Shown here piece after piece: positions 20,372-61,668 of a stretch of 64,000 nucleotides of DNA (the stretch's first letter is position 1; every line of letters begins with the position of its first letter). Below the pieces are notes generated by a model, which ran no database searches, was not told where the DNA came from, and worked only from the letters and a program-made list of their open reading frames with translations. A program made the position numbers and the translations under genes. The stretch lies in the NCBI GenBank assembly GCA_000004985.1, contig GG738904.1; one strand, given 5' to 3'. The stretch is from Naegleria gruberi (lineage: Eukaryota).

Positions 20372-20585
20372 TTTTTTTTAGTCTGGAATAAAGTGGAAGT
20401 TTTTGGCGGTTGATTTTTCAAAATCATTAAATTATTTGTTAAATTTCCATAGAACGGTAGAATTTGTAAAGGAAATAAATCTGGAAAATTTTGAATTAGT
20501 AATTTATTCGTCGGTACTTGATTGAATCGTTTTTATTTATATTCATCATGAATGCCTTTATATTTCATATTTTATGATTGTACAT

Positions 20586-20704
20586 GGCTACGGCCATATC
20601 ACGATGAATGCACCTCATCCCGTCCGATTTGAGAAGTTAAGCATCGTCGAGCCACATCAGTACTGAGGTTGGAGACAACTTGGGAACCTGTGGTGCTGTA
20701 GTCT
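20586..20704 (+). rRNA. rrn5: 5S ribosomal RNA gene (single dispersed copy)
   Basis: GGCTACGGCCATATCACGATGAATGCACCTCATCCCGTCCGATTTGAGAAGTTAAGCATCGTCGAGCCACATCAGTACTGAGGTTGGAGACAACTTGGGAACCTGTGGTGCTGTAGTC aligns along its length with eukaryotic 5S, including the internal control region AGAAGTTAAGC. Followed by a TTTTT Pol III terminator at 20705-20709. Confidence 0.85.
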
Positions 20705-21124
20705 TTTTGCAGATTGCCTTTGTGATATCACTTTAGTTGGGAGCTTGTTTTTATTGATATTGCAATAATGTTACATTAATGAATTTCATTTTTGCGTATA
20801 TTCTCAACTCTAGCTGAACCTGAAAAACAAGCCAACTCACAATAACATAACACCTTTGGCGTCGTAATATTCAATGACCGTTATACAACAAGATTCCCAA
20901 AATGAACAATTTTCTAATGACTACCGTCCCCATTACGCTTATTACTGTTTACCCCTCAAAAACACAACCTCCCTTATTACCTTAAATACAGAATTTACAA
21001 CAATGCGACCTCGCATCGAACAGTAAAACAAATTCTCATCACGCAGCACAATGTGCTTCTTGTCGCAAGTAAACAACACAAAAAAAAACAACTCAACAAG
21101 AACTAGAAACGCAACATTAAGAAA

Positions 21125-21739
21125 ATGGGCTCTATGCTTTCCTTGTTACCTGCTTCATCGTTTCGTATAACTCCAGTGTTATACGCCTTTTCCTTCTCAT
21201 CAATTGCCTTCTTTGTGAAATATGTTGTTCAGGAGGTCATGATGGTCTTGATGAGTAAGGAGAGAGATCAAGAACCTCATCTATTTGAAGATATTAGGAG
21301 AACCAATTTGGATGACATTCCAAAGGATTGGAATAATAAGCGATCAACCTATGAAAGGTTGAGAAGAATCAAGAAGGAAGATTTTGAAACATTGGTCATG
21401 TTCTTCTTTATTGTGGTTCCATTCTTGATTTTCACAGATGGTGGAGTCAATTCGAATTATACATACGGTGCCACTGGTGCTCAATGGAGTGATCTCTCCA
21501 TTGTCAACTCTGTATTTGGATGCACTCTCATTCTGATCTTTCCAGTGTTGAGATTAATTTCAACAGCCCTCACATTCTTCGTCTCAAAGACTGTAGTTCA
21601 GAATGTAATGAGAATTATGACAATGGCTTACTTTGCCTTATTCATCTTGTACTCTTTCATTATGATCTTTGTTTTCAATTATATTCCTGGTGTTGGTAAT
21701 AATGGTGGAGGTGGTGGTGGAAATACCCCAAAGTACTAA
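21125..21739 (+). CDS. Hypothetical multi-pass membrane protein with C-terminal Gly-rich tail
   Basis: ATG-initiated 204-aa ORF with several hydrophobic segments and a GNNGGGGGGNTPKY end. No recognisable domain. Confidence 0.5.
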   Translation: MGSMLSLLPASSFRITPVLYAFSFSSIAFFVKYVVQEVMMVLMSKERDQEPHLFEDIRRTNLDDIPKDWNNKRSTYERLRRIKKEDFETLVMFFFIVVPFLIFTDGGVNSNYTYGATGAQWSDLSIVNSVFGCTLILIFPVLRLISTALTFFVSKTVVQNVMRIMTMAYFALFILYSFIMIFVFNYIPGVGNNGGGGGGNTPKY

Positions 21740-22085
21740 ATAAATAGAAAGTAGTTATTGTATTCTGGAGATCTTCTTCATCAGATTCTTCTCTGAACTA
21801 ATTCACAATTTATTAAAAACAATATTACTTTGTATTTGATTTGTGGAAGGAGCATACGAAAAGTAAATAACAGCTTCATTTGCATCAGTGGACGCTCCGT
21901 TCTCATTGGTAATTATTGAACTAGTATTTGGTTGATATCCGGATACATAAGGAGTGGCAATTTTCTGAGTTGTTTGATCGACTATTGAAAATGTTTCTTC
22001 AATTACTGGATTAGAAATTAATGTTGTGGATGCAGTTTTGCTTTCTAATGGAAAAGTTGAAGTTTCACCATTTTCAGGAGTTGTT

Positions 22086-22941
22086 TCAATACCTGTCTTT
22101 TGCATTTTCCAACACTTCCAAAGGAATTTCTGCATTTTCTGTTACATCAACATGAGTATCTGTTGTTGCAATATGATTAGTGGTTTTACCAGTCGTGAAA
22201 TTTCCTTTAAAACTAAAATCCAAACTTGGATCATTTTTCCAATAATAGTAAATACCAAGAGCTACCAAACCAACACCAAACCAAATTATTGAACTTATTA
22301 CAAGTGCAACGAATGTAAACATAATTCCAAACTTGTAAGGTGTATACTCATTAGTAGTTGCAAACTGAACCACATTCAAAGGATTATAATAACAAGTTGA
22401 GGACGAATTGACTGGCCAAGCTGCCAAATACTCCTCCACACATCCATAATCATATTTACATTCCTTCTTCATACTGGAAATAACCGTAGCATTTTCCACT
22501 GTTAAATATTCCATTGTAATTGTTGGATTCCAACATTCTTTACAGGACAATGTACACAACCTATCACTCACACTACTACAGCATCGACAATTACATGAGT
22601 GAGAGGTGAACTTTCCATTGGAACAACTTTTACAGGTATCACAACATCTACCACAACAATGATATCCATCGCAGCAATCTTTGGTTGAGTTGATTGGGAG
22701 GGTAATAGATAATGAATCACATGTGGTGCCACCCCCACAACTGGAGCAATAGGTGCAATCTTTGAAACAGCATTTGAAAGAGAGGATTTTTGAGTTTCGA
22801 ACAGTGCATGTGATTGGAAGAAAGGTTTCTTTTACAATAATTTCTGGATAGGTCACTCACACCAATCCAAACTACAAAGAAGACACAGCACCAGCAGCCT
22901 GCACATATGAATTGACTTTGAATAATAGCTTTTCTTTTCAT
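22086..22941 (-). CDS. Cysteine-rich type I membrane protein; proposed join(complement 22863..22941, complement 22086..22759) with a 103-nt intron
   Basis: Exon 1 MKRKAIIQSQFICAGCWCCVFFVVWI (signal peptide), then donor GTGTGAGT and acceptor TTTCAAAG|. The remainder is a Cys-rich ectodomain (CTYCSSCGGGTTCD...CCDGYHCCGRCCDTCKSC...), a TM helix IMFTFVALVISSIIWFGVGLVALGIYYYW and a short tail. 251 codons in frame. The GTG-initiated track ORF lacks a signal peptide. Confidence 0.5.
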
Positions 22942-23195
22942 TGCAGGATTAGTTGTGAGATTCGTCTATTTTTTTGATGAATACTTGAAAACAAATTGAG
23001 CTCACAGATTTTAAATATGGAATTTATTTTGGTAGCCAGTTCACCAAATGAGCGCTCCTTTTACAAACAACCTTAAAGTTTAATTAACCATGTCCAATTA
23101 AAATGATTGGCATGTAACTTTCAAGTTTCGTTCAAAAGGTAATTCAAAAAACATTTCCCAAAACGATTCATAATCTACAAATACTGCAAAAGAAG

Positions 23196-23437
23196 AAAAA
23201 AAGTAGAACCAGGCACGTTTCGATCGTGCGACCAGGGTGCACTAGCTGGGGAAGTATGTTAAATAATTCACAGCTGACATGAAACAGCTTACTATTAGTC
23301 AACTTGCAACCTCATTGTAATACATAGAGTACTGTAGACTCTCACACTGATGCATTACATTGATAGTCGCGTGTTGACAGCTGATCATTGGGGGATCATC
23401 CTTGCTCTCCCAACTGAGCTACAAGTCCTACAATTTT
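23196..23437. ncRNA. Candidate Pol III-transcribed structured ncRNA of unknown class (tRNA-like head / possibly SRP- or SINE-like); strand unresolved
   Basis: Minus strand: perfect tRNA-type A box GGACTTGTAGCTCAGTTGGGAGAGC (23404-23428), B-box-like GCACGATCGAAACGTGC about 190 nt downstream, then T7 (A-run at 23196-23202). Plus strand: ends in TTTT at 23434-23437, carries GCTGATCA and GAAAC-AGC motifs in SRP-like order, and the 5' segment AGCTGGGG can pair with the 3' segment CTCCCAACT. No complete tRNA cloverleaf can be built. Confidence 0.3.
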
Positions 23438-23861
23438 ATAAAGTGTTTATTTGTGACTCTTTTTTGAATGTTACTAAAAATTGAACAAAATTTTGGGTTT
23501 TTCAAAATTGAAAAAATATTATATTTTCTAATGTTTTCAGAAAACAGCTGTTATTAATATCAGATGCTGATTTTCTCAACATTGTAAACTAGGTCCCTCT
23601 AACTCCTTAATTTCTCCCTTGTAACTTATGTATCATTTTTATCCAAATAACCTTATTCAATAGCACTAATCAAGCAAAGTTACTGGATTAAATAATTCTC
23701 CCAAGCGGATTTTTCAAAGTATCAAGAAAAGCGAAATTTGTGATGGAATGCAAAAAAAAACCACGAAAAAAAAATAAGCGAACAACAAAGCCTAAATTTC
23801 TTTCACTGATTTTTTTTTCTTATTAATTTATTTTCTTCATCATTATAATTAATTTATATAA

Positions 23862-25250
23862 ATGTCCACCACTACTACTCAACATAGAGTCTTGTTGCTC
23901 GGATCTGGATTTGTTGCCGGAACCACTCTTGAATCACTCACTCGTGATGGTACTAATACTTTTGTTACTGTAGCTTCTCGTACCTTGAGCAAGTCTATTG
24001 AAATGTGTAAGGAGTATGCTCATGATTATGAGAATAGAACTGCTCAAGTTGCTTTGGATATTGAAAATGAACATGATAAATTGTCTGAATTGGTTAGTCA
24101 ACATGATTTGGCCATTTCCTTGGTTCCATACACTTATCACGTCTTGGTTGCCAAGGCCTGTATTCAACACAGAAAGAATATGGTCACTACAAGTTATATT
24201 TCACCTGCTTTGCGTGAATTAGATCAACAATTCAAGGATTTGGGAATTGCTTCAATGAACGAAATTGGTGTTGATCCTGGTATTGATCACATGATTGCTA
24301 CCAAGATTATTCACGAAGAACAAGATTTGAAGGGAGGAAAGATTAAGAGCTTCTACAGTTGGTGTGGTGGTTTGCCTCATCCAGATCACATTGATAATCC
24401 AATGAAGTATAAATTCTCTTGGTCTCCTCGTGGTGTCTTGATGGCTTTGCAAAATACTGCCAAGTGGATTGAAGGTGGTGAAATTAGAGTTGTTGAACCA
24501 TCAAAGCTTTTGGCTTCTAGAAGAGAATTGAACTTGGCTAAGGATATGCCATTGTTTGAAGGTTATCCAAATCGTGATTCTACTCCATTCAAGGAACATT
24601 ATAATTTGAAATATGCTGATGATGTTTTGAGAGGAACTTTGAGATTCAAGGGTAACTGTGAAGTTGTTGAATTTTTCATTGGAGCTGGTTTGGTTGACTT
24701 GACTCCAAGACCTGATATTAAGGATAAGCAATGGAGAGAAATCATGAAGGAACTCCTCGGAGCTGAAAGTGTTGAAGAATCCGCTCTCAGTGCTGCTCTC
24801 TTGAAGAAATTGAATTTGGAACCAGAATCTGAAAAGGCCAAGAGTGCCACTCATGCATTCCAATTCTATGGTTTGTTCAGTGAAAAGGTTGCTCCATTCA
24901 AGGGTACCTTGTTGGATACCTTCTCTCAAACCTTGTTGGAACAAATGGAATACAAGCCAGGAGAAAGAGATATGCTCTTCATGTGTAATACCTTTGTTAT
25001 TGAAACTGCTGAAGGTAAGAAGAAGACCATTGTTGCCAAATTGGTCGATTTTGGTGATGAAAGAGGTATGTCAATGGCCAAGACTGTTGGTTATCCATGT
25101 GCTGTTGCTACAAAGAAGATTTTGAACGGAGAAATTACTACCAAGGGTGTCTTTGGTCCATACGAATATAACATGAACGAATCAATCATGAAGGAATTGA
25201 AGGAAGTTGAACGTATTCATGTTGATTATGAAGTTTCTGAAGAACAATAA
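23862..25250 (+). CDS. Saccharopine dehydrogenase (NADP+, L-glutamate-forming), monofunctional LYS9 type
   Basis: 462-aa single exon. N-terminal Rossmann motif VLLLGSGFVAG, characteristic central region ...MNEIGVDPGIDHM..., and C-terminal saccharopine dehydrogenase domain. ATG at 23862, TAA stop. Confidence 0.9.
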   Translation: MSTTTTQHRVLLLGSGFVAGTTLESLTRDGTNTFVTVASRTLSKSIEMCKEYAHDYENRTAQVALDIENEHDKLSELVSQHDLAISLVPYTYHVLVAKACIQHRKNMVTTSYISPALRELDQQFKDLGIASMNEIGVDPGIDHMIATKIIHEEQDLKGGKIKSFYSWCGGLPHPDHIDNPMKYKFSWSPRGVLMALQNTAKWIEGGEIRVVEPSKLLASRRELNLAKDMPLFEGYPNRDSTPFKEHYNLKYADDVLRGTLRFKGNCEVVEFFIGAGLVDLTPRPDIKDKQWREIMKELLGAESVEESALSAALLKKLNLEPESEKAKSATHAFQFYGLFSEKVAPFKGTLLDTFSQTLLEQMEYKPGERDMLFMCNTFVIETAEGKKKTIVAKLVDFGDERGMSMAKTVGYPCAVATKKILNGEITTKGVFGPYEYNMNESIMKELKEVERIHVDYEVSEEQ

Positions 25251-25348
25251 ACTGTTTTAATTTCAATTATTATTATTATTATCGTTACAATAGTGTTTAA
25301 CATTTCAATTAAGACTGGGTTGAGTAAAATAATTACAATTTAAAAAAA

Positions 25349-27003
25349 ATGAATCAATTCATTGAGAAGGGACGAGAAATTCTCTCCGAAGCTCTCGAAC
25401 ATGAAAATAAGAAGCAATATCAACAAGCATTGGATAAATACTATTTGGGAATTAAACATTTTATGACCGGATTGAAATGTAAATATATTTATTTAATCAT
25501 CAATTTATTTAAATATTATTTAAATAATATTATATAAATTGATTAATATTGAAGATATTGAAGGACAAAAAACAAAGGAACAAGTAAAAAAGTACATTAA
25601 CGAATATTTGGAAAAGGCTGAAAAAATCAAGGAATTAATTCATGGAAAGGCGAACGTTTCATCAACAATTGGTTCTTCAGCAACGAATAATTCTCAATCA
25701 TCAACATCAGTACCGGTTGGAAAGGAAAAGAGGAGAAAATCACTGATCAAAGAATCTGCAAGTGAAAAGAAAAGTGAGGGAAAGAAGAATCAATCATTGG
25801 AAGAGGTAGAAAGTTTACAAAATATGATTCGGCAATGTATTGTGGATACTAGAGAGGAGATTCCATGGAGTGAAGTAATTGGAATGGATGCACCTAAAGA
25901 AACGATCAATGAGGCATTGATTCTCCCTCGACAATTTCCTCAATTATTTGTTGGAGAGAGAAAGCCAATTAGGACAATACTATTATATGGGTAAGTGGAA
26001 TTATTTAGAATTCAATTCATTGAAAATTGTAGTCCTCCAGGAACTGGAAAGGTTTGTAATCAATTTTTTGAATAGTTTTTGAATATTAATTTAATCAAAG
26101 TCATTCTTTGTAAAAGCAGTGGCTAGTAATATGAAAGAGGTTACGTTCTTTTCAGTTTCTTCAAGTGATATAGTTTCTAAATACATGGGGGAATCTGAAA
26201 AGCTTGTAAAGACACTTTTTGAAGAAGCAAAAAAGAGACAACCAGCTATAATTTTCATTGATGAAATTGATGCTGTAGGATCATCAAGAGAGGGACTTGG
26301 AGGTGGAAGTAGTAATGAGAGTATTTCACGACTGAAAACTGAACTCTTGCTAAAAGTTCAAGATGTTTTGGATATGAAAGATACTGGAATTATTGTCATT
26401 GGAGCCACAAATAGGCCAACGGATTTGGATCCTGCTCTGAGAAGAAGATTTCAAAAACGTATTTATATTCCTCTTCCTGACGAGAATGCAAGAAAGCAAT
26501 TATTCAGAGTTAACTTGGAAGGTGTGGAAGTGGATGTGACACACGAAAATATTGATGAATTCGCCAAATTAACCAACCAATATTCAGGAGCAGATATTGG
26601 AATTATTATAAGGGATGCTCTTATGAAACCAGTAAGAGAAGCAATGAATTCTGACTATTTCAAAACAACAAACGATGGAACCATAGTCCCATGTTCCAGA
26701 AACGAAAAGAACTCTAAAAAGATGAACATGTTGGACATTAAGCAACCAGAAAAATTGAAAATTGCAAAGGTAACTGCTAAGGATATTTATGATTCCATTA
26801 AATCGGTAAAACCTTCCACAAATCCAAGTGAAATACTTTCATTCATTGAATTTACACAAAACTATGGAGAATCTGATAATCCAGTTGAGGAAGAACATGA
26901 AGAAATTGAGAATCAATACAAACGAAAGAAGGATGATAATATCTACGTCCAAGAAATTGGCACTGCTACAGTGCAAAAACCAAAACGAAAGAAATATCTA
27001 TAG
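25349..27003 (+). CDS. VPS4: VPS4-type AAA ATPase (MIT domain + AAA + Vps4 C-terminal); join(25349..25478, 25555..25990, 26032..26050, 26101..27003)
   Basis: MIT: MNQFIEKGREILSEALEHENKKQYQQALDKYYLGIKHFMTGLK|YIEGQ... Walker A is split over a 19-nt micro-exon: ILLYG|PPGTGK|SFFVKAVA. Also has FFSVSSSDIVSKYMGESEKLVK, IIFIDEIDA (Walker B), sensor and Vps4_C-like VPCS...SEILSFIEFTQNYGE. Introns of 76, 41 and 50 nt with GT..AG. 496 codons in frame. Confidence 0.85.
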
Positions 27004-27056
27004 ACTTAATGATCAATAGTTACTTTACAATAAGGAGGTTTATTATTTACATTGAT

Positions 27057-27988
27057 TTACTTATTGGCATCTTCAAAGGCAGACAAATCACTCTCAGCAT
27101 TTTGCTTACCACATGAATTGAACAAGGCGAAACCCTTCTTTGAACTACGTTTACCATCCTTGGTAGTTTTTTCTGGAACTGGTTCAGTAACTTCCTCAAA
27201 TTCATCAAATTCACCATTTCTTTCCTTTCTGACAGTTCTTACCAATGCATCATAGGCATTTTCAATATTGATATTTCTATAAGCAGAGGTTTCAAAGAAT
27301 TTACACTTGGCAAATTGCTTGGCAAAACCTTCACCTTCCTTATAAGAAATAACTCTTTCTTCCTCCAAGTCAATCTTGTTTCCTAAAATACATACTGGAA
27401 TACCTTCCTCACCAACATCACGACTTCTACACAATTGTCCATAGATATCCTTTACTTCCTCAAATGATGAAGCATCTGTAATGCTGTAAACAAGAATGAA
27501 TCCCTATTAATTAATGTTAATATATTTGGAAAATTTCACAAATATTTACTTACATCTCCTTCTCTCATGTATTGATCTCTCATGGCCTAAATGATCAGAT
27601 ATATTAAATTGAATTATTAGAAAGTTAGAATATATTGCTAAATAAAAAACTCACAGTAAATTCTTCTTGACCTGCAGTATCCAATAAACTAATGGAAACT
27701 GGTTTATTGTCGACAGTTCTTTGAACAGTGTAGGCATCTGAGAAAGAGTTGTTAATAATTATGATGAGGATGTTTAAACTTACCTTCAATGGTTGGATCG
27801 TAGCCAAATTTAAATTCCTTCTTGATGAATTGAATAGTAACTGCGGATTTACCTATAATAAATGTTATTAGAAACTATTATTATTAGAATTGAAACGTAC
27901 CCACACCACCGGAACCCAACATGACGAATTTCATTTCGTCTCTTTGTGTTTGGGACATTTCTATGGTTGTTGCGTTAGAGGATGACAT
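27057..27988 (-). CDS. Ras-family small GTPase; join(complement 27901..27988, 27784..27852, 27655..27737, 27554..27586, 27057..27503)
   Basis: G1 GSGGVGKSAVT (split by an intron inside the P-loop), G2 YDPTIED, G3 DTAGQEEF, 33-nt micro-exon AMRDQYMREGD, G4 NKID, G5 ETSA. Donors are GTACGT, GTAAGT, GTGAGT, GTAAGT; acceptors are all AG. 240 codons in frame. C-terminus ...FNSCGKQNAESDLSAFEDANK has no CAAX box. Confidence 0.85.
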
Positions 27989-29293: not shown

Positions 29294-29740
29294 NNNNNNN
29301 NNNNNNNNNNNNNNNNNNNNNNNNNNNNNNNNNNNNNNNNNNNNNNNNNNNNNNNNNNNNNNNNNNNNNNNNNNNNNNNNNNNNNNNNNNNNNNNNNNNN
29401 NNNNNNNNNNNNNNNNNNNNNNNNNNNNNNNNNNNNNNNNNNNNNNNNNNNNNNNNNNNNNNNNNNNNNNNNNNNNNNNNNNNNNNNNNNNNNNNNNNNN
29501 NNNNNNNNNNNNNNNNNNNNNNNNNNNNNNNNNNNNNNNNNNNNNNNNNNNNNNNNNNNNNNNNNNNNNNNNNNNNNNNNNNNNNNNNNNNNNNNNNNNN
29601 NNNNNNNNNNNNNNNNNNNNNNNNNNNNNNNNNNNNNNNNNNNNNNNNNNNNNNNNNNNNNNNNNNNNNNNNNNNNNNNNNNNNNNNNNNNNNNNNNNNN
29701 NNNNNNNNNNNNNNNNNNNNNNNNNNNNNNNNNNNNNNNN
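29294..29740. other. Assembly gap (447 N)
   Basis: Run of N. ORFs 29198-29755(-) and 29290-29931(+) in the track are read-through artefacts of the gap. Confidence 1.
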
Positions 29741-31736
29741 TGCCTTCATCCTCATCAGGAGAATCCTTATTAATTGAAGCTAATCAAACAAACGCACAAA
29801 GCTTTTTGGAGAATAATCAAACAAGAGCAGTTTCATCATCTAGTAGATCTGTTGATGTTGGTGCCTTGAAGGCCTTCGTGGATGGAAAGTATGCTCACGT
29901 AAGTTTTAATGTTTTTATGCATTTTGGTTGACCACATAATAGACCAAGGAGAAAATTAGAGAAAACACTTTAAAGAAGGATTTTAAACATATCTTTGATT
30001 ATGATACTTTGCATTATCAAGAAGCCCGTAAAGTTTTGATGGGTTGGGCTAAACTTCATACTGAAGAACTTCCATTCGATTTGTTGGATATTCTTAGAAA
30101 TGATTATGGTAAATTTGTTGCATTCTTTGAACAATTGGGTCATTTCAATACATCTTTGGTTGTCAAGATGGCTGTACAATTCTCCTTGTTTTCTGGTACT
30201 TTGGCAAACTTGGGAACTGACAGACATCACGACCTCGTCAGACAAGCTCAAACACTCCAAGTTTTGGGATGCTTTGGTATGACTGAAAAGGGACACGGTT
30301 CAAATGTTCGTGGTATTGAAACTACTGCCACTTATGATCCAAAGACTCAACAATTCATTGTCAATACACCAAATCCTAAGGCCATGAAGACTTGGATTGG
30401 TGGTGCTCAATATTGTCACTTTTCTGTAGTGTTTGCTCACTTGATTATTGGAGGAGAAAATAAGGGTGTTCATGTCTTTTTGGTTCCAATGCGTGACAGA
30501 AATACTCAAAAACTTTTACCAGGTGTTTATGTGGAAGATGTTGAATACAAATTGGGATTGAATGGTATTGACAATTATTCATTCGGATTCAATAATGTTC
30601 GTATTCCACGTACTAATCTCCTCAACAGATATTCAGATGTCACCCCAGAAGGTAAATATGTCTGTAAATTCAAGACTGAATCCCAACACTTTGGTGCTAC
30701 TGTAGGTGAATTGAGTGGTGGTAGAATTGTTATTGGTGCTATCGGTAATGCTGCTGCCAAGTCTTGTCTCGCTATTGCCATCAAGTATGCTTTTGCTAGA
30801 AAGCAATTTGGTCCACCAGGCAAGTCTGAAATTTCAATCATGGAATATCCATCTCACTACACTAGATTAATGCCTCTTCTTGCCAGAACTTTTGCTATTG
30901 CCTCTGGTTTGGCTTATGTTCGTGACCAATATCGTCACAAGCACAAGAATGCTGAAGCTAATGCTTATGGTCACTGTTTGACCTCAGCTATTAAATCAGC
31001 TGCAAGCTTCCACACTCTTCACACTGCTGATATCTGTAGACAAGCTTGTGGTGGTGCTGGTTTCCGTGCTCCAAATTTAATTTCTGGATTCTTGAGAGAT
31101 ACTCACATCTTTGTCACTTTCGAAGGTGATAACCAAGTTTTACTCCAACAAGTTGCCAAATATCTCATTGCTCAATATGCTCAAGGTTGCAAGCAAGGTG
31201 GGTTCAAGGGTACTGTTTTCGAATACTATAAGAATGGTAAGGTTGAATTCGATGGTAAGGAAGATTTGACTTGTCCAAGATATCAATTATACTTGTTCAG
31301 AAACAGAGAAGTCAAGATGACTGAAGAATTGATTAAGAGACTCAGAGATAGAGAAAATAGAGGTGAAGACCAATGGGAATCATTCAAGAATGAAATTGTT
31401 TTTGCCAATGAACTCGGTTTGGCATTTGCTGATAGATTATTACATGAACAATTGCTTAAGGATTCACAACTCTGTGCCTTCTCCATTTCTGGTACTCTCA
31501 GTCTTTTGAGTAAGCTCAATGGTTTAGCTCAACTTCAAAAGTCATTGGCTTGGTTCGTCACTAATGATGTCTTGTGTAAGAATCTTGCCAAACAAGTTGA
31601 TTCTTTGGTCGTTTCTTTATCTAAGGAAGTTAGCAAGATCTCTTTGGATTTGGTTGAATCATTTGATATTCCATCCAATATTCTCCCACCAAGAGCTGAC
31701 TTGTCTGATTACTCTTGTGATACTCCACAACTCTAA
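29741..31736 (+). CDS. Peroxisomal-type acyl-CoA oxidase, 5' end missing in gap; join(<29741..29898, 29943..31736)
   Basis: Upstream exon ...VDVGALKAFVDGKYAH, donor GTAAGT, 44-nt intron, acceptor ATAATAG|. Main exon has the ACOX/acyl-CoA dehydrogenase fold motifs (GMTEKGHGSNVRGIETTATYD, GGAQYCHFSVVFAHLIIGGENKGVHVFLVPMRD, C-terminal ACOX domain). Stop TAA at 31734-31736. Confidence 0.85.
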
Positions 31737-58354: not shown

Positions 58355-58992
58355 CTTGACCAAAATGGTTGTTCCTCATCTGATTGAATCCATTCAAATA
58401 ATTTTTCATAGAATATTTTAGGATGTTGTAAAATTCTTTCTTTTTTAACATGAAAAGAGGCGCAACACCATCTAGTAATGCTTGATGGTACTTTACCCAA
58501 TTCATTTTCGAATAGTTTCTTCCAATATTTTTCAACTATACGATAATTAGGATCTGTTTCATTCAAATGTCTGTGAAATTGTGGATTTAATGAAATGTAT
58601 TCATATTTACCCCAATATAAACTCTCCACAACAGGTACAATATCAACATAATGCCACGATTTCCTATGTCCATGAATAAAAATCATATTTTCAGGTAAAT
58701 TTTCATAATAATCAATAATAAATTTCAAATAACTTGAAGCTTCATGTCCCCTATTTTCTTTTACTTTAAATGATGGATTTGGATCCAATCTATCATAAAC
58801 TACGTGTGGAATATGAGGGAAATGTGTTGCTAACCACGATGTGTCCTCATTAAATCTTGAAACTATTATCATGTTTTTAGTATTGGTAAAATTATCATGT
58901 TTTGGAGTATTGTGGTGTATAACTCCGAATTGATATAAAACAATAGTCATGAGTGTGAGGAAAACTAAACTCCACAAAATACGTTCTTTCAT
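58355..58992 (-). CDS. DUF3431-like type II membrane protein (putative glycosyltransferase-like), 3' end lost in gap
   Basis: ATG at 58992. N-terminal signal anchor ILWSLVFLTLMTIVLYQF, motif VSRFNEDTSWL, HGHRKSWHYVD. ORF runs into the gap at 58354. Confidence 0.55.
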
Positions 58993-59191
58993 TTTTTTTT
59001 ACAACACTTGACAGGGGAATTTAACAGTTTCGCTAGGTAATGTTTTGGTAAATCCAAAGTTGGTGTAATATTTTCAAAATCAAAAACCACAAGAACCAGT
59101 TCGATGTAGTATGTTGCCTCTTCATCATCACCTCTTTCAGGTACCTCAATTACATTTTATCTGATTAAGGTCTTGATATAAAAAATGTGCT

Positions 59192-59262
59192 CGTCTCGTG
59201 GTGTAATGGTAGCATAGTGGACTTTGAATCCATTGACGGAGGTTCGATTCCTCCCGAGACGG
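59192..59262 (+). tRNA. tRNA-Gln(UUG): tRNA-Gln (anticodon UUG), copy 1
   Basis: CGTCTCG TG GTGT AATGGTAG CATA GTGGA CTTTGAA TCCAT TGAC GGAGG TTCGATT CCTCC CGAGACG G. Cloverleaf with 7-bp acceptor (C1-G72), D-arm like eukaryotic tRNA-Gln, anticodon loop CTTTGAA, T-loop TTCGATT. No encoded CCA. Confidence 0.8.
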
Positions 59263-59294
59263 TAAACGTGGCGAGCCATTGAGATTTGCAAACT

Positions 59295-59344
59295 NNNNNN
59301 NNNNNNNNNNNNNNNNNNNNNNNNNNNNNNNNNNNNNNNNNNNN
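59295..59344. other. Assembly gap (50 N)
   Basis: Run of N. Confidence 1.
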
Positions 59345-59460
59345 TCTGAATTTCAATGAAATCTTTGGATAAACGTTTTAAAGCTCTGCTGTGTGGAGTT
59401 GCTGCTGTTGAATAGGAAGAATTTGACATTTTAATTGAAAGACAATTTGATGAAATTTAA
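59345..59460 (-). repeat. Near-identical second copy of the 5' end (first ~28 codons plus 5' UTR) of the E2/F-box gene, abutting a gap
   Basis: 59345-59460 matches 58186-58304 except for a short microsatellite-like indel (MSNSSYSTAATPHSRALKRLSKDFIEIQ vs MSNSSNSSNSTAATPH...). Flush against the N run, so consistent with an uncollapsed haplotype or contig-end overlap rather than a real exon. Confidence 0.6.
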
Positions 59461-59720
59461 AAGATTTTGATGGAATGTGGAGTCTGAGAAATCCGAATCT
59501 GTGTTTCGATTCAATTTTTTGTGAATGTTGATCGATTTTTGATTAGCTTGCAAATCGATTAAAAACTGATTTTTTTAGAGTTAAAAATAGAAGATCAAAA
59601 TTTTTCAACAGGTTCAATAAATTGTTTTAAAATTCATCAACTGATCAAATCATTTTAGAACCTTATTTTGAATTCTAAATAAGAAACTGATTCGAAATCC
59701 AAGGATTGTTGTTGATTATC

Positions 59721-60311
59721 TCACCATAGAACGGTGCAAATGAGTTTAGGAATTGATTTCTTACATGCCACATAAAAATCTTCACATGTCAAATCAACAA
59801 ATGAATAATTGTTAACTTGGATTCCATCAAAATAGTTATTCCACATTAGATGTTCAACATTCCTGTTGGTGTTATTTGTAAAGTTAAATGCAGATACTTC
59901 CAAGACGAAACTATTTTGTGAAACTTTGCACTTGTCAGAATCAATTGCCTAGATTCGAGTAACTCCACTCACATCAGAGGGGATTCCAAACATGGAGAGG
60001 AATGTTAGTTGCTTGATGGGGTTTGTTTTGTCTCCCCAAACCAGAATATTCAACTGTTTAATGTATCGAATAATGTTTACCAATACGAAACACAAAGGCA
60101 TTGCCTTATTCTCTGCCTTTTCATATAAAATTTCAACCCTTGATATCAAAATATGTCGATCACTATTATAATTATCCAAATTTAAATCCACCTCTTCAGT
60201 GAGAATTTCGTAAATTGTTCTGAATCGTTTTCCAGTAATTGATTCGATGGTTTTTTCATCTTGTTTCCAATATCCTTCATCTTTTATTAAAATATCGGCC
60301 TTGAGCAACAT
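59721..60311 (-). pseudogene. Inverted duplicate of the gene at 38278-38880 carrying a premature TAG stop and divergence in the 3' half
   Basis: Codons 1-119 MLLKADILIKDEGYWKQDEKTIESITGKRFRTIYEIL... are about 90 percent identical to the parent gene, and the upstream 80 bp is also copied. GAG is replaced by TAG at the position of E120 (59946-59948). The downstream part (...VNNYSFVDLTCEDFYVACKKSIPKLICTVLW) is in frame but diverged, with internal deletions. Confidence 0.7.
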
Positions 60312-60656
60312 TTTTCAAATCAAAATCCAAACTTGATAGGTGCAGTTCTTGTTTATGATTGTGTTATTTTTTGTAATTTTTTTGTGATTTTGATTGGGAT
60401 TGAGGTCTTAATAAACAATTTATAATGAATCATCTTATGGATGGAATGAAAAGAAAAGACTGATTGTTGGATAAAGTCAATTTGAAAATTTTTACAACTT
60501 AATGTGAGGTATGAAAAAAATTGCATGCCTGCCGAGGCTTCCAAAAAAAGAAATATAGATAATTTTTGAAAAATAAAAACGCCACTACCTTGATATGGAT
60601 GTCTAGTAGGGATCTATGAAAAATTGGGCAAAAATATTAAGAATTAAAAATTACTA

Positions 60657-60727
60657 CTCGAGTGCCGGGAATTGAACCCGGGTCGCCAGAGTGACAGTCT
60701 GGAATGCTACCACTATACCACACCCGA
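60657..60727 (-). tRNA. tRNA-Asp(GUC): tRNA-Asp (anticodon GUC)
   Basis: Reverse complement: TCGGGTG TG GTATAGTGGTAG CAT T CCAGA CTGTCAC TCTGG CGAC CCGGG TTCAATT CCCGG CACTCGA G. U1-A72 start and GTATAGTGGT D-arm typical of eukaryotic tRNA-Asp. G4-U69 wobble. Confidence 0.85.
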
Positions 60728-60988
60728 TTTCACATTTATTCTGAAACTATCCACTACCCTTATCTGTACAGAACGAATATTTAATTTTTTCTACTGAACT
60801 ACTAAAGTGTTGCACTTTCTTTCAAATAGAAAATAGTTTTATGACTCTATTCTCCTCTCCTTCTCTCAAGAAAGAAAATATTAATTTATTTTGGATACTT
60901 CCTTTTTATTAGCTAGTATCAGTAAAATTTATTCTTTCTTTAATAGTATTGTGAAATAATTTGTTCGAAGCCAAATGATTACAATTTG

Positions 60989-61150
60989 TGATGCTTGGTG
61001 GTATTTTACCCAATTCATTTTCGAATATATTTTTCAACTATTCGATAATTATCATCTGTTTCATTCAGATGGCTGTGAAATTGTGGATTTAATGAATGTA
61101 TTCATATTTACCCAATATAAACTCTCCACAACAGGTACAATATCAATATA
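60989..61150 (+). repeat. Degenerate fragment copy of the DUF3431-like gene (cf. 58465-58640), part of a duplicated gene-fragment plus tRNA-Gln block
   Basis: About 85 percent identity to 58465-58640 in the same orientation, with no intact ORF. 59080-59190 and 61320-61407 (the tRNA 5' flanks) are also similar. Confidence 0.6.
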
Positions 61151-61407
61151 AAGGTATTTTTGTATTGGTCACTCTAGTTGTTGTAATGCCAGGTTTTGAG
61201 GCTTAGAATTTAACGAAAATGGTTTGCCTTCTTGATGTGTTTTGAAGCTATGGGAGTAAACTACAATTTCCTTTTTGCTTAAAATTTAATCTCAAAACGC
61301 GGCATATTTTCAATTAATTATCAAAAACCAAAAGAACCAGTTCAGTCTACATAAATTGTTGCTTCAATTAAATATTATGATTAAGGTGTTGATTTAGTGA
61401 ATGTGCT

Positions 61408-61478
61408 CGTCTCGTGGTGTAATGGTAGCATAGTGGACTTTGAATCCATTGACGGAGGTTCGATTCCTCCCGAGACGG
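61408..61478 (+). tRNA. tRNA-Gln(UUG): tRNA-Gln (anticodon UUG), copy 2 (identical to copy 1)
   Basis: Same 71-nt sequence as 59192-59262. The about 10 nt upstream (AATGTG) and about 24 nt downstream (TAAACGTGGCGAGCC.TTGAGATTT) are also conserved between the copies. Confidence 0.8.
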
Positions 61479-61668
61479 TAAACGTGGCGAGCCCTTGAGA
61501 TTTTTCTTATTGAACTTTTTCTGTTTAACAACATGCAATACGCCTCAACAGAGATAGAACTCACTACTCAGTTCACCTATTGGTTACTGCTGCTATTAAG
61601 CAATTGAAGGAATAAGTTAATAATAATTGCTTGTGTTTGCGTTTACGTTTTACAATTTCCAGAAAAAA

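Follow-up and report, generated by a model that had tools for sequence, protein, structure and literature searches.

A candidate tRNA-framed RNA polymerase III unit with a structured insert between its D and T arms in Naegleria gruberi

Within a 64,000-nt stretch of Naegleria gruberi DNA (contig GG738904.1, hereafter the window, of about 33% GC by base composition), the minus strand of an intergenic region carries a 225-nt unit, running from 23428 to 23204, whose ends resemble those of a tRNA gene and between which about 150 nt of other sequence are found. The element is real but unclassified, and judging from its sequence we put at roughly one in two the probability that it is a tRNA-derived RNA polymerase III (Pol III) gene in which the anticodon arm has been replaced or interrupted by some 150 nt of structured RNA, and which would yield a non-decoding, tRNA-framed RNA of about 225 nt. 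A sequence-only reading of the same DNA had described a Pol III-type unit here that was not a plain tRNA, small nuclear RNA (snRNA) or 5S rRNA gene, and this description holds, with the addition that the unit is tRNA-related on the minus strand.

Architecture of the minus-strand unit

Read along the minus strand, to which all features below belong unless otherwise stated, the unit consists of an acceptor 5' strand, a D arm, an A followed by AGGAT, the insert of about 152 nt, the segments CTAGTGC, ACCCT and GGTC, a T arm, an acceptor 3' strand and TAC, after which comes a T7 run from 23202 to 23196. The acceptor 5' strand GGACTTG (23422-23428) aligns with positions 1-7 of the tRNA model and pairs at six of seven positions with the acceptor 3' strand CTGGTTC (23206-23212), two of these pairs being G-U and the remaining position a UxU mismatch. 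It is followed by U8, A9 and the D arm GCTC-AGTTGGGA-GAGC (23404-23421), which together form the box A region and keep all of the invariants U8, A14, G18, G19 and A21. A textbook A box had been reported for this strand, and indeed the D arm is flawless; the 25-mer GGACTTGTAGCTCAGTTGGGAGAGC (23428 to 23404) that ends with it is unique in the window even at 3 mismatches and is matched by 0 of 100 shuffles. At the far end of the unit lies the B-box-like hairpin that had been placed about 190 nt downstream and before a T7 run, both of which are found: the T arm GCACG-AUCGAAA-CGUGC (GCACGATCGAAACGTGC; 23213-23229), 192 nt from the D arm, retains G53, U55, C56, A58 and C61 and has an A at position 54, while the T7 run (23196-23202), a putative Pol III terminator, starts 10 nt past this hairpin and 3 nt past the acceptor strand. 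The positions of the tRNA tertiary pairs U8-A14, G15-C48, G18-U55 and G19-C56 are furthermore intact. Only on the minus strand do box A, box B and the terminator have the right register; read on the plus strand, the T-arm hairpin has the loop TTTCGAT, which is shifted by one base relative to a B box.

Where a tRNA would have its anticodon arm, A26 and AGGAT (23398-23403) offer a possible 5' stem strand in a tRNA-Thr(AGU) model obtained with relaxed ARAGORN, pairing at four of five positions with ACCCT (23234-23238). The segment CCCAGCU-AGUGC-ACCCU (23234-23250), to which the latter belongs, can either pair with the D-loop region (AGUUGGG with CCCAGCU) or provide the Thr(AGU) model with its anticodon loop CUAGUGC and its 3' stem strand. 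GTGC (23242 to 23239) can in addition pair with GCAC (23229 to 23226), the 5' strand of the T stem, in a D-arm-like hairpin with the loop ACCCTGGTC that excludes the T-arm hairpin, and this may be a chance alternative fold.

The two halves of the frame belong to one unit and are linked beyond chance, as follows from the rarity of the hairpin, the pairing of the ends, the adjacent T7 run and a combined scan. A loose search for T-arm-like hairpins on both strands of the window (128 kb) returned six, namely those of the three real tRNAs, that of the element and two in coding sequence, and the chance of meeting an unexplained one within 250 nt downstream of a D arm is about 0.4%. The chance of at least six acceptor pairs out of seven is about 1.3%, calculated with 6/16 per position. 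When D-arm-like and T-arm-like elements were required on one strand, only the two tRNA-Gln genes and the unit were recovered from the window and five Naegleria/Willaertia loci. The 5' 25 nt of the unit can also pair with the 32 nt that precede the T arm (-19.1 kcal/mol), but a duplex as stable is reached by 6% of shuffles and 0.8% of genomic 32-mers, and we regard it as modest evidence. It corresponds to the pairing of 5' and 3' ends that the sequence-only reading had remarked upon; on the plus strand, the complementarity of AGCTGGG and CCCAACT does exist but is not distinctive.

The DNA that abuts the predicted 5' end likewise recalls a Pol III gene. This promoter-proximal region (23429-23440) comprises TATAAAA (23440 to 23434) and, overlapping it, ATTGTA (23434 to 23429). 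The other Pol III-type genes of the window, as found by ARAGORN at its default and by Rfam at gathering score, are a 5S rRNA gene (20586-20704), two tRNA-Gln(UUG) genes and one tRNA-Asp(GUC) gene, and all four carry the motif A[AT]TGT[AG] at -9 or -8 (20577-20582, 59183-59188, 60731-60736 and 61399-61404); in the element it is found at -6 (23429-23434), in a version identical to that of the 5S gene. With a background of 0.0019 per position, the chance of such an occurrence is about 1.3-1.9% per gene. The hexamer may be a Naegleria Pol III start-site motif, although it cannot readily be seen in front of the single Willaertia tRNA-Leu that was inspected (L002, 14061). The promoter context is in keeping with a Pol III gene that is resident in this genome, and less so with one that arrived by retroposition.

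Rfam screens, run at gathering score over the whole window and at E<=10 with permissive filters over both strands of 23100-23540, place the element in no family. The former returned the 5S and the three tRNA genes and nothing at the element, and the latter only chance-level matches to ceN103 and SurC, of which ceN103, the sole small nucleolar RNA match, has E = 2.8 and 19 bits against the 55 required.

The sequence architecture, the strand, the fold statistics, the composition and the lack of an Rfam family are established here, and transcription, processing and any function are what we infer from them. TFIIIC would bind box A (23421-23404) together with box B 192 nt downstream (23229-23213), TFIIIB would be positioned on the AT-rich TATAAAA/ATTGTA region, and Pol III would start near G23428 and stop in the T7 run. 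The resulting transcript of about 225-230 nt would retain a tRNA-like frame made up of the 7-bp acceptor-type stem, the D arm, the T arm and the G15-C48 pair, a frame that could be bound by tRNA end-processing enzymes and thus act as a processing handle, while the centre would fold as one long and two short hairpins.

The insert and what it may represent

The central and longest of these hairpins, H2 (23298-23378), spans 81 nt and comprises about 25 bp in four helical segments and an apical 5-bp stem-loop; it emerges both from the fold statistics and from the inverted repeats I2 and I3. On the minus strand H2 folds at -29.5 kcal/mol (z = -4.62), and none of 200 shuffles is equally stable, whereas its plus-strand counterpart reaches -22.1 kcal/mol (z = -2.19), a difference that arises because three G-U pairs become A-C on the plus strand. 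The flanking hairpins are less convincing: H1 (UGAUC-CCCCAAU-GAUCA; 23382-23398), with 5 bp and a 7-nt loop, occurs in the minimum-energy and centroid folds but is not significant alone (z = -0.4), and H3 (AGCUG-UUUCAUGU-CAGCU; 23272-23289), likewise found in the folds, is weak (z = -1.1). The unit as a whole folds at -66.5 kcal/mol (z = -2.06), and constraining it to the tRNA frame costs 5 kcal/mol relative to the unconstrained fold.

In composition, too, the unit is set apart from its surroundings, having 45% GC (40% in the insert) against 32% and 25% in the intergenic flanks, and neither TTTT nor AAAA occurs anywhere within its 225 nt. It follows that the unit contains no internal Pol III stop signal and that it is unlike old, drifting intergenic DNA. 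Windows equally GC-rich and free of A and T runs make up 1.3% of the 152-nt windows outside open reading frames (ORFs) and 0.15% of those of 225 nt, counts that take in the windows over the element itself.

The centre shows none of the small nucleolar RNA hallmarks that were sought by manual search. There is no CUGA on the minus strand of the unit and its best match to the C box RUGAUGA is AUGAUCA, and no H/ACA layout was found in the unit, H2 being without a large internal pocket. Manual inspection and a repeat scan furthermore revealed no fitting target-site duplication or terminal repeats at the ends of the insert. A 15-nt direct repeat that is 80% identical (family D2) occurs at 23175-23189 and 23419-23433, where the minus strand reads TTGTAGGACTTGTAG and TTGCAGTATTTGTAG. 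As it overlaps the unit's 5' end with one copy and has the other just beyond the terminator, it is too weak and too misplaced to be a clean target-site duplication.

Several points weigh against a tRNA-derived gene with a structured RNA in place of its anticodon arm. The z-score of the whole-unit fold is a modest -2.06, and the composition and the hairpin could also be explained if structured or foreign DNA had recently entered a tRNA gene. The element is absent upstream of the dehydrogenase gene of three relatives, although synteny is broken exactly there, the predicted Thr(AGU) product passes ARAGORN at its default once the insert is deleted, which keeps splicing conceivable on sequence grounds, and the case is built on one locus.

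A rival notion, which we hold to be somewhat unlikely, is that of an ordinary tRNA gene that lost its activity recently, when its anticodon arm received an insertion of about 150 bp, perhaps a small palindromic element; such a gene may still be transcribed, but into an RNA without a role. Since 924 tDNAs have been reported for N. gruberi (PMC2888827), damaged copies are to be expected. The notion is furthermore in agreement with the imperfection of the stems that join the two halves (the UxU mismatch and two G-U pairs in the acceptor stem and an AxC mismatch in the anticodon stem), where the stems within each half are perfect, as well as with the facts that the 3' half goes unrecognised by Rfam and the unit belongs to no family, that the unit is not found at the neighbouring-gene loci of relatives, and that the insert has an imperfect inverted repeat at its centre. 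However, the ends of the insert are not marked by a target-site duplication or a terminal-repeat boundary, neither the window nor the relatives' loci contain the insert a second time, and it has a GC content above that of its surroundings and is devoid of A and T runs. H2 is moreover clearly more stable on the strand that would be transcribed, and changes are unevenly distributed for neutral decay, there being none in the 25-nt 5' half and three deviations from full complementarity in the 7-nt 3' acceptor strand, two of which still pair as G-U. A broken tRNA gene would be an ordinary finding, yet one that illustrates how tRNA finders may miss or miscall such loci in a genome for which 924 tDNAs are reported.

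The tRNA-framed gene that we favour could, going further, encode a functional and so far undescribed Naegleria Pol III non-coding RNA, in which the arms would serve as promoter and as processing or export handle and the centre of about 150 nt as the working part, either as a vault-type or other ribonucleoprotein RNA or as a Dicer-substrate hairpin on a tRNA scaffold. We regard this as a rather doubtful possibility, but were it so, the unit would represent a natural "tRNA scaffold" RNA in a free-living excavate and provide a lead to Naegleria small RNAs such as vault RNA and Pol III-driven hairpin RNAs.

Vault RNAs are similar in being products of Pol III type-2 genes whose internal box A lies close to the 5' end and whose box B lies close to the 3' end, and in having paired ends, a variable structured centre and an oligo-U end. 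These features are generic and common to any tRNA-framed gene, and the likeness is one of general plan only, since the unit measures about 225 nt against about 85-140 nt for vault RNAs, has no match to RF00006 at E<=10, and has ends that provide not just promoter boxes but a complete tRNA frame, including D arm, T arm and 7-bp stem. Vault RNA has also been described in Trypanosoma brucei, another member of Discoba (PMC12547018), and two divergent major vault protein candidates have been reported for N. gruberi (PMC7916137).

The tRNA-miRNA-encoded RNAs (TMERs) of murine gammaherpesvirus 68, and tRNA genes with alternative folds that yield Dicer substrates, combine a tRNA-like Pol III unit with a hairpin of pre-miRNA size, as H2 with its 81 nt and about 25 bp would be. 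The hairpins of TMERs, however, follow a complete tRNA-like element and are freed by tRNase Z, whereas the hairpin of the Naegleria element is embedded between the tRNA halves. The adenovirus virus-associated (VA) RNAs and the Epstein-Barr virus (EBV)-encoded small RNAs (EBERs) resemble it in that the A and B boxes are internal, the two ends close a terminal stem, the central domain is structured and transcription terminates in oligo-U, but they are viral, about 160-170 nt long, have their boxes close together in the 5' half, and show no sequence or Rfam kinship with the unit.

Decoding, splicing and other readings

The sequence-only reading had stated that no complete cloverleaf can be drawn, and indeed ARAGORN at its default, with and without introns, finds no tRNA at the element, while the Rfam tRNA model RF00005 gives no whole-unit match over 23100-23540 either at gathering score or at E<=10. 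The 5' half does align to positions 1-30 of that model, at 13.7 bits where 29 are needed, and the 3' half alone has no Rfam match. Only when the threshold is lowered to 80% does ARAGORN propose a tRNA-Thr(AGU), the 152-nt intron of which separates positions 31 and 32, and in which the loop CUAGUGC supplies C32, U33, G37 and C38 and the stem contains an AxC mismatch. Such calls are common, however, as 48 are made in the window at 85% of the threshold, of which just the three real tRNAs are backed by default ARAGORN or Rfam and the other 45 or so are nearly all intron-bearing.

Deleting the insert in silico likewise fails to single out an identity. Out of 4800 joins, 37 pass the default ARAGORN threshold, with at least nine different anticodons between them, and they name Thr(AGU), Gly(CCC), Val(AAC), Trp(CCA), Leu, Cys and Arg in mutually exclusive weak cloverleaves; the frame therefore lets any passable stem-loop complete a cloverleaf. 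In the Gly(CCC) product the insert lies near 37/38, but two bases separate the D and anticodon stems, which amounts to an extra nucleotide at 26, and position 37 is a pyrimidine; its D arm is also unlike that of Gly tRNAs. We estimate the chance of a stem with four of five pairs, together with U33 and purine 37, when the junction may be freely chosen, at about 8%, and the anticodon arm is at chance level. In addition, no bulge-helix-bulge could be drawn manually at any junction, and at 31/32 AAGG is opposed by CCCC where CCUU would be needed, and an outer helix is missing. The unit hence probably does not yield a decoding tRNA, since it has neither a credible anticodon loop nor a canonical or bulge-helix-bulge splice geometry.

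The same observations make it distinctly improbable that the element is a real tRNA gene with a very long intron, which would be removed by splicing endonuclease and ligase to give either Thr(AGU), with 152 nt at 31/32, or Gly(CCC), with about 150 nt at about 37/38. Such an interpretation may call on the relaxed ARAGORN Thr(AGU) model with its C32, U33 and purine 37, on the fact that both products pass default ARAGORN after deletion of the insert, Gly(CCC) even with the intron at the canonical site, on the intact tertiary-pair positions, and on the partial pairing of the anticodon region with the start of the insert, as in pre-tRNAs. It is made unlikely by the many other unsupported relaxed calls and by the variety of passing joins, which leaves the arm at chance level, and furthermore by the identity of several residues. 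A tRNA-Thr needs A37 for t6A, and the Thr(AGU) product has G37 and C38 instead; the Gly(CCC) product in turn needs the extra nucleotide at 26 and has a pyrimidine at 37; and position 54 is an A and the acceptor stem contains the UxU mismatch in either case. The intron site of eukaryotic tRNAs is 37/38, as set by a ruler mechanism, and 31/32 is thus non-canonical in eukaryotes; we know of no intron at 31/32 in ordinary eukaryotic nuclear tRNAs, and neither do we know of a eukaryotic nuclear tRNA intron near 150 nt, which would be far longer than those familiar to us.

Precedents for tRNA halves split by intervening and possibly structured RNA are nonetheless provided by tRNAs with long or non-canonical introns, such as the ectopic ones of Cyanidioschyzon merolae and archaeal tRNA-Trp, the intron of which encodes a C/D box RNA, and the loop CCCCAAU of H1 resembles a Trp anticodon loop. 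The Naegleria unit differs from them in lacking a bulge-helix-bulge, in that the site giving the best cloverleaf is non-canonical, and in that its insert has no C/D boxes or H/ACA architecture. Should the unit be spliced after all, an intron of 150 nt, perhaps at a non-canonical site, would be informative about site selection by the eukaryotic tRNA splicing endonuclease.

A tRNA-derived short interspersed element (SINE) had been among the candidates of the sequence-only reading, but the architecture speaks against it, and we consider this or any other mobile Pol III element very improbable. In tRNA-derived SINEs both boxes are located in a compact 5' tRNA head, which is followed by a body and a tail. 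The element does possess a box A-bearing, tRNA-like 5' region followed by unrelated, non-tRNA sequence, and the weak D2 repeat at its 5' end and just beyond the terminator might be taken for the remains of an insertion. A compact head is lacking, however, as nothing similar to a box B occurs in the 60 nt around box A, box B being found 192 nt away at the extreme 3' end, beside an acceptor-type strand complementary to the 5' end and before a terminator. In addition, the unit has no A-rich or repeat 3' tail, no clean target-site duplication lies outside it, and it carries the native upstream motif of the resident Pol III genes. Furthermore, a single copy is present in the 64-kb window and none in about 50 kb of Naegleria/Willaertia loci, as determined by exact, 3-mismatch, blastn-short and nhmmer searches.

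It is scarcely credible that the element belongs to the known Pol III RNAs, be it on the plus strand or as one missed by the models, for instance as a signal recognition particle (SRP, 7SL), vault, Y, RNase P/MRP or U6 RNA, even though the plus strand ends in TTTT and the two termini can pair. SRP, vault, Y, RNase P/MRP and snRNA identities were dropped because the Rfam screens returned no such family on either strand at E<=10, and box A and box B have the right registers on the minus strand only. The SRP-like candidate of the sequence-only reading, which had been based on plus-strand GCTGATCA and GAAAC..AGC motifs in the order of helix 8, fares no better. The motifs are present but not distinctive, and a helix 8 with a GNAR tetraloop is lacking; we take GCTGATCA..GGGATC to recall helix 5/8 of human 7SL, but GCTGATCA..GGGATCA is the reverse complement of the small self-hairpin H1. 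Moreover, N. gruberi is one of the species with mitochondrial Ffh in whose nuclear genomes the Rfam protozoan SRP model RF01856 detects clear 7SL homologues (PMC8321541), whereas at the element this model has no match.

Genomic setting and related loci

The element sits in a divergent intergenic region of 1 kb between a gene for a Cys-rich membrane protein (22086-22856, minus strand) and a saccharopine dehydrogenase gene (23862-25250, plus strand). The latter is 100% identical to a predicted N. gruberi saccharopine dehydrogenase, the next-best matches being those of N. lovaniensis (85%) and Willaertia magna (72%). Five loci of relatives were compared (L001, L002, L004, L008 and L009), and upstream of the dehydrogenase gene the element is absent in N. 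lovaniensis (L001), in W. magna (L002) and in a JGI Naegleria-like contig (L004). In N. lovaniensis and the JGI contig the upstream neighbour of the dehydrogenase is, however, a different gene, and in W. magna no other protein of the window was matched, and these absences are therefore uninformative. Compared with N. lovaniensis and the JGI contig, the MIT-domain gene, which is apparently the N-terminus of a Vps4-like AAA ATPase, and a small GTPase gene of the dehydrogenase region (23862-27434) switch side and orientation, and the rearrangement breakpoint around the dehydrogenase falls within the intergenic region that bears the element.

On the other side, the only match of the Cys-rich neighbour, at 51% identity, is L008, which is probably a paralogue rather than the orthologous locus, since the same ENA sample also holds a strain about 92% identical to the window. 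This strain is represented by L009 (ENA ERZ929261, contig k127_189865), which has about 92% DNA identity to 20648-22686 of the window, and 100% over the 3' end of the 5S gene, and thus derives from a close relative of N. gruberi NEG-M in that sample; it lacks the equivalent of 22263-22652 and ends at 22686, about 500 bp short of the element. Exact-protein look-ups with the N. gruberi proteins and with a 44-aa ORF overlapping the element returned no record from an index that excludes N. gruberi, and literature searches, which covered tRNA introns, small RNAs, vault RNA and Pol III RNAs of Naegleria, turned up no description of the locus.

A metagenome scan for the 25-mer GGACTTGTAGCTCAGTTGGGAGAGC recovered only phage-like tRNA arrays, which share it by coincidence. 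These arrays, from ENA metagenomes, carry the 25-mer in L005 (6980-7085), L006 (1-75) and L007 (1900-1795, minus strand), with a RAGATH-27 RNA just upstream. In them an anticodon arm, a long variable arm, a T arm and CAAGTCT come immediately before GGACTTGTAGCTCAGTTGGGAGAGC, so that the 3' half of a tRNA stands upstream of its 5' half, and joined in permuted order the halves give tRNAs at the default ARAGORN threshold; to judge from its sequence, the array unit looks like a circularly permuted tRNA-like gene that is unrelated to Naegleria. Parts of the element were also sought in viral contigs, where nothing relevant was matched; the sole hit was a phage contig with the T-arm 17-mer in repeated hairpins.

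Elsewhere in the window, runs of N that mark assembly gaps are found at about 29300-29750, inside or beside an NHL-repeat gene, and at about 59295, just 3' of the first tRNA-Gln gene. The two tRNA-Gln(UUG) genes (59191-59263 and 61407-61479) are identical and share the 3' trailer AAACGTGGCGAGCC[AC]TTGAGATTT, with no oligo-T immediately 3' of either. They lie within a tandem segmental duplication (58525-61503), the blocks of which are 93-98% identical and spaced by 2.2-2.5 kb, and the tRNA-Asp(GUC) gene is located between them on the opposite strand.

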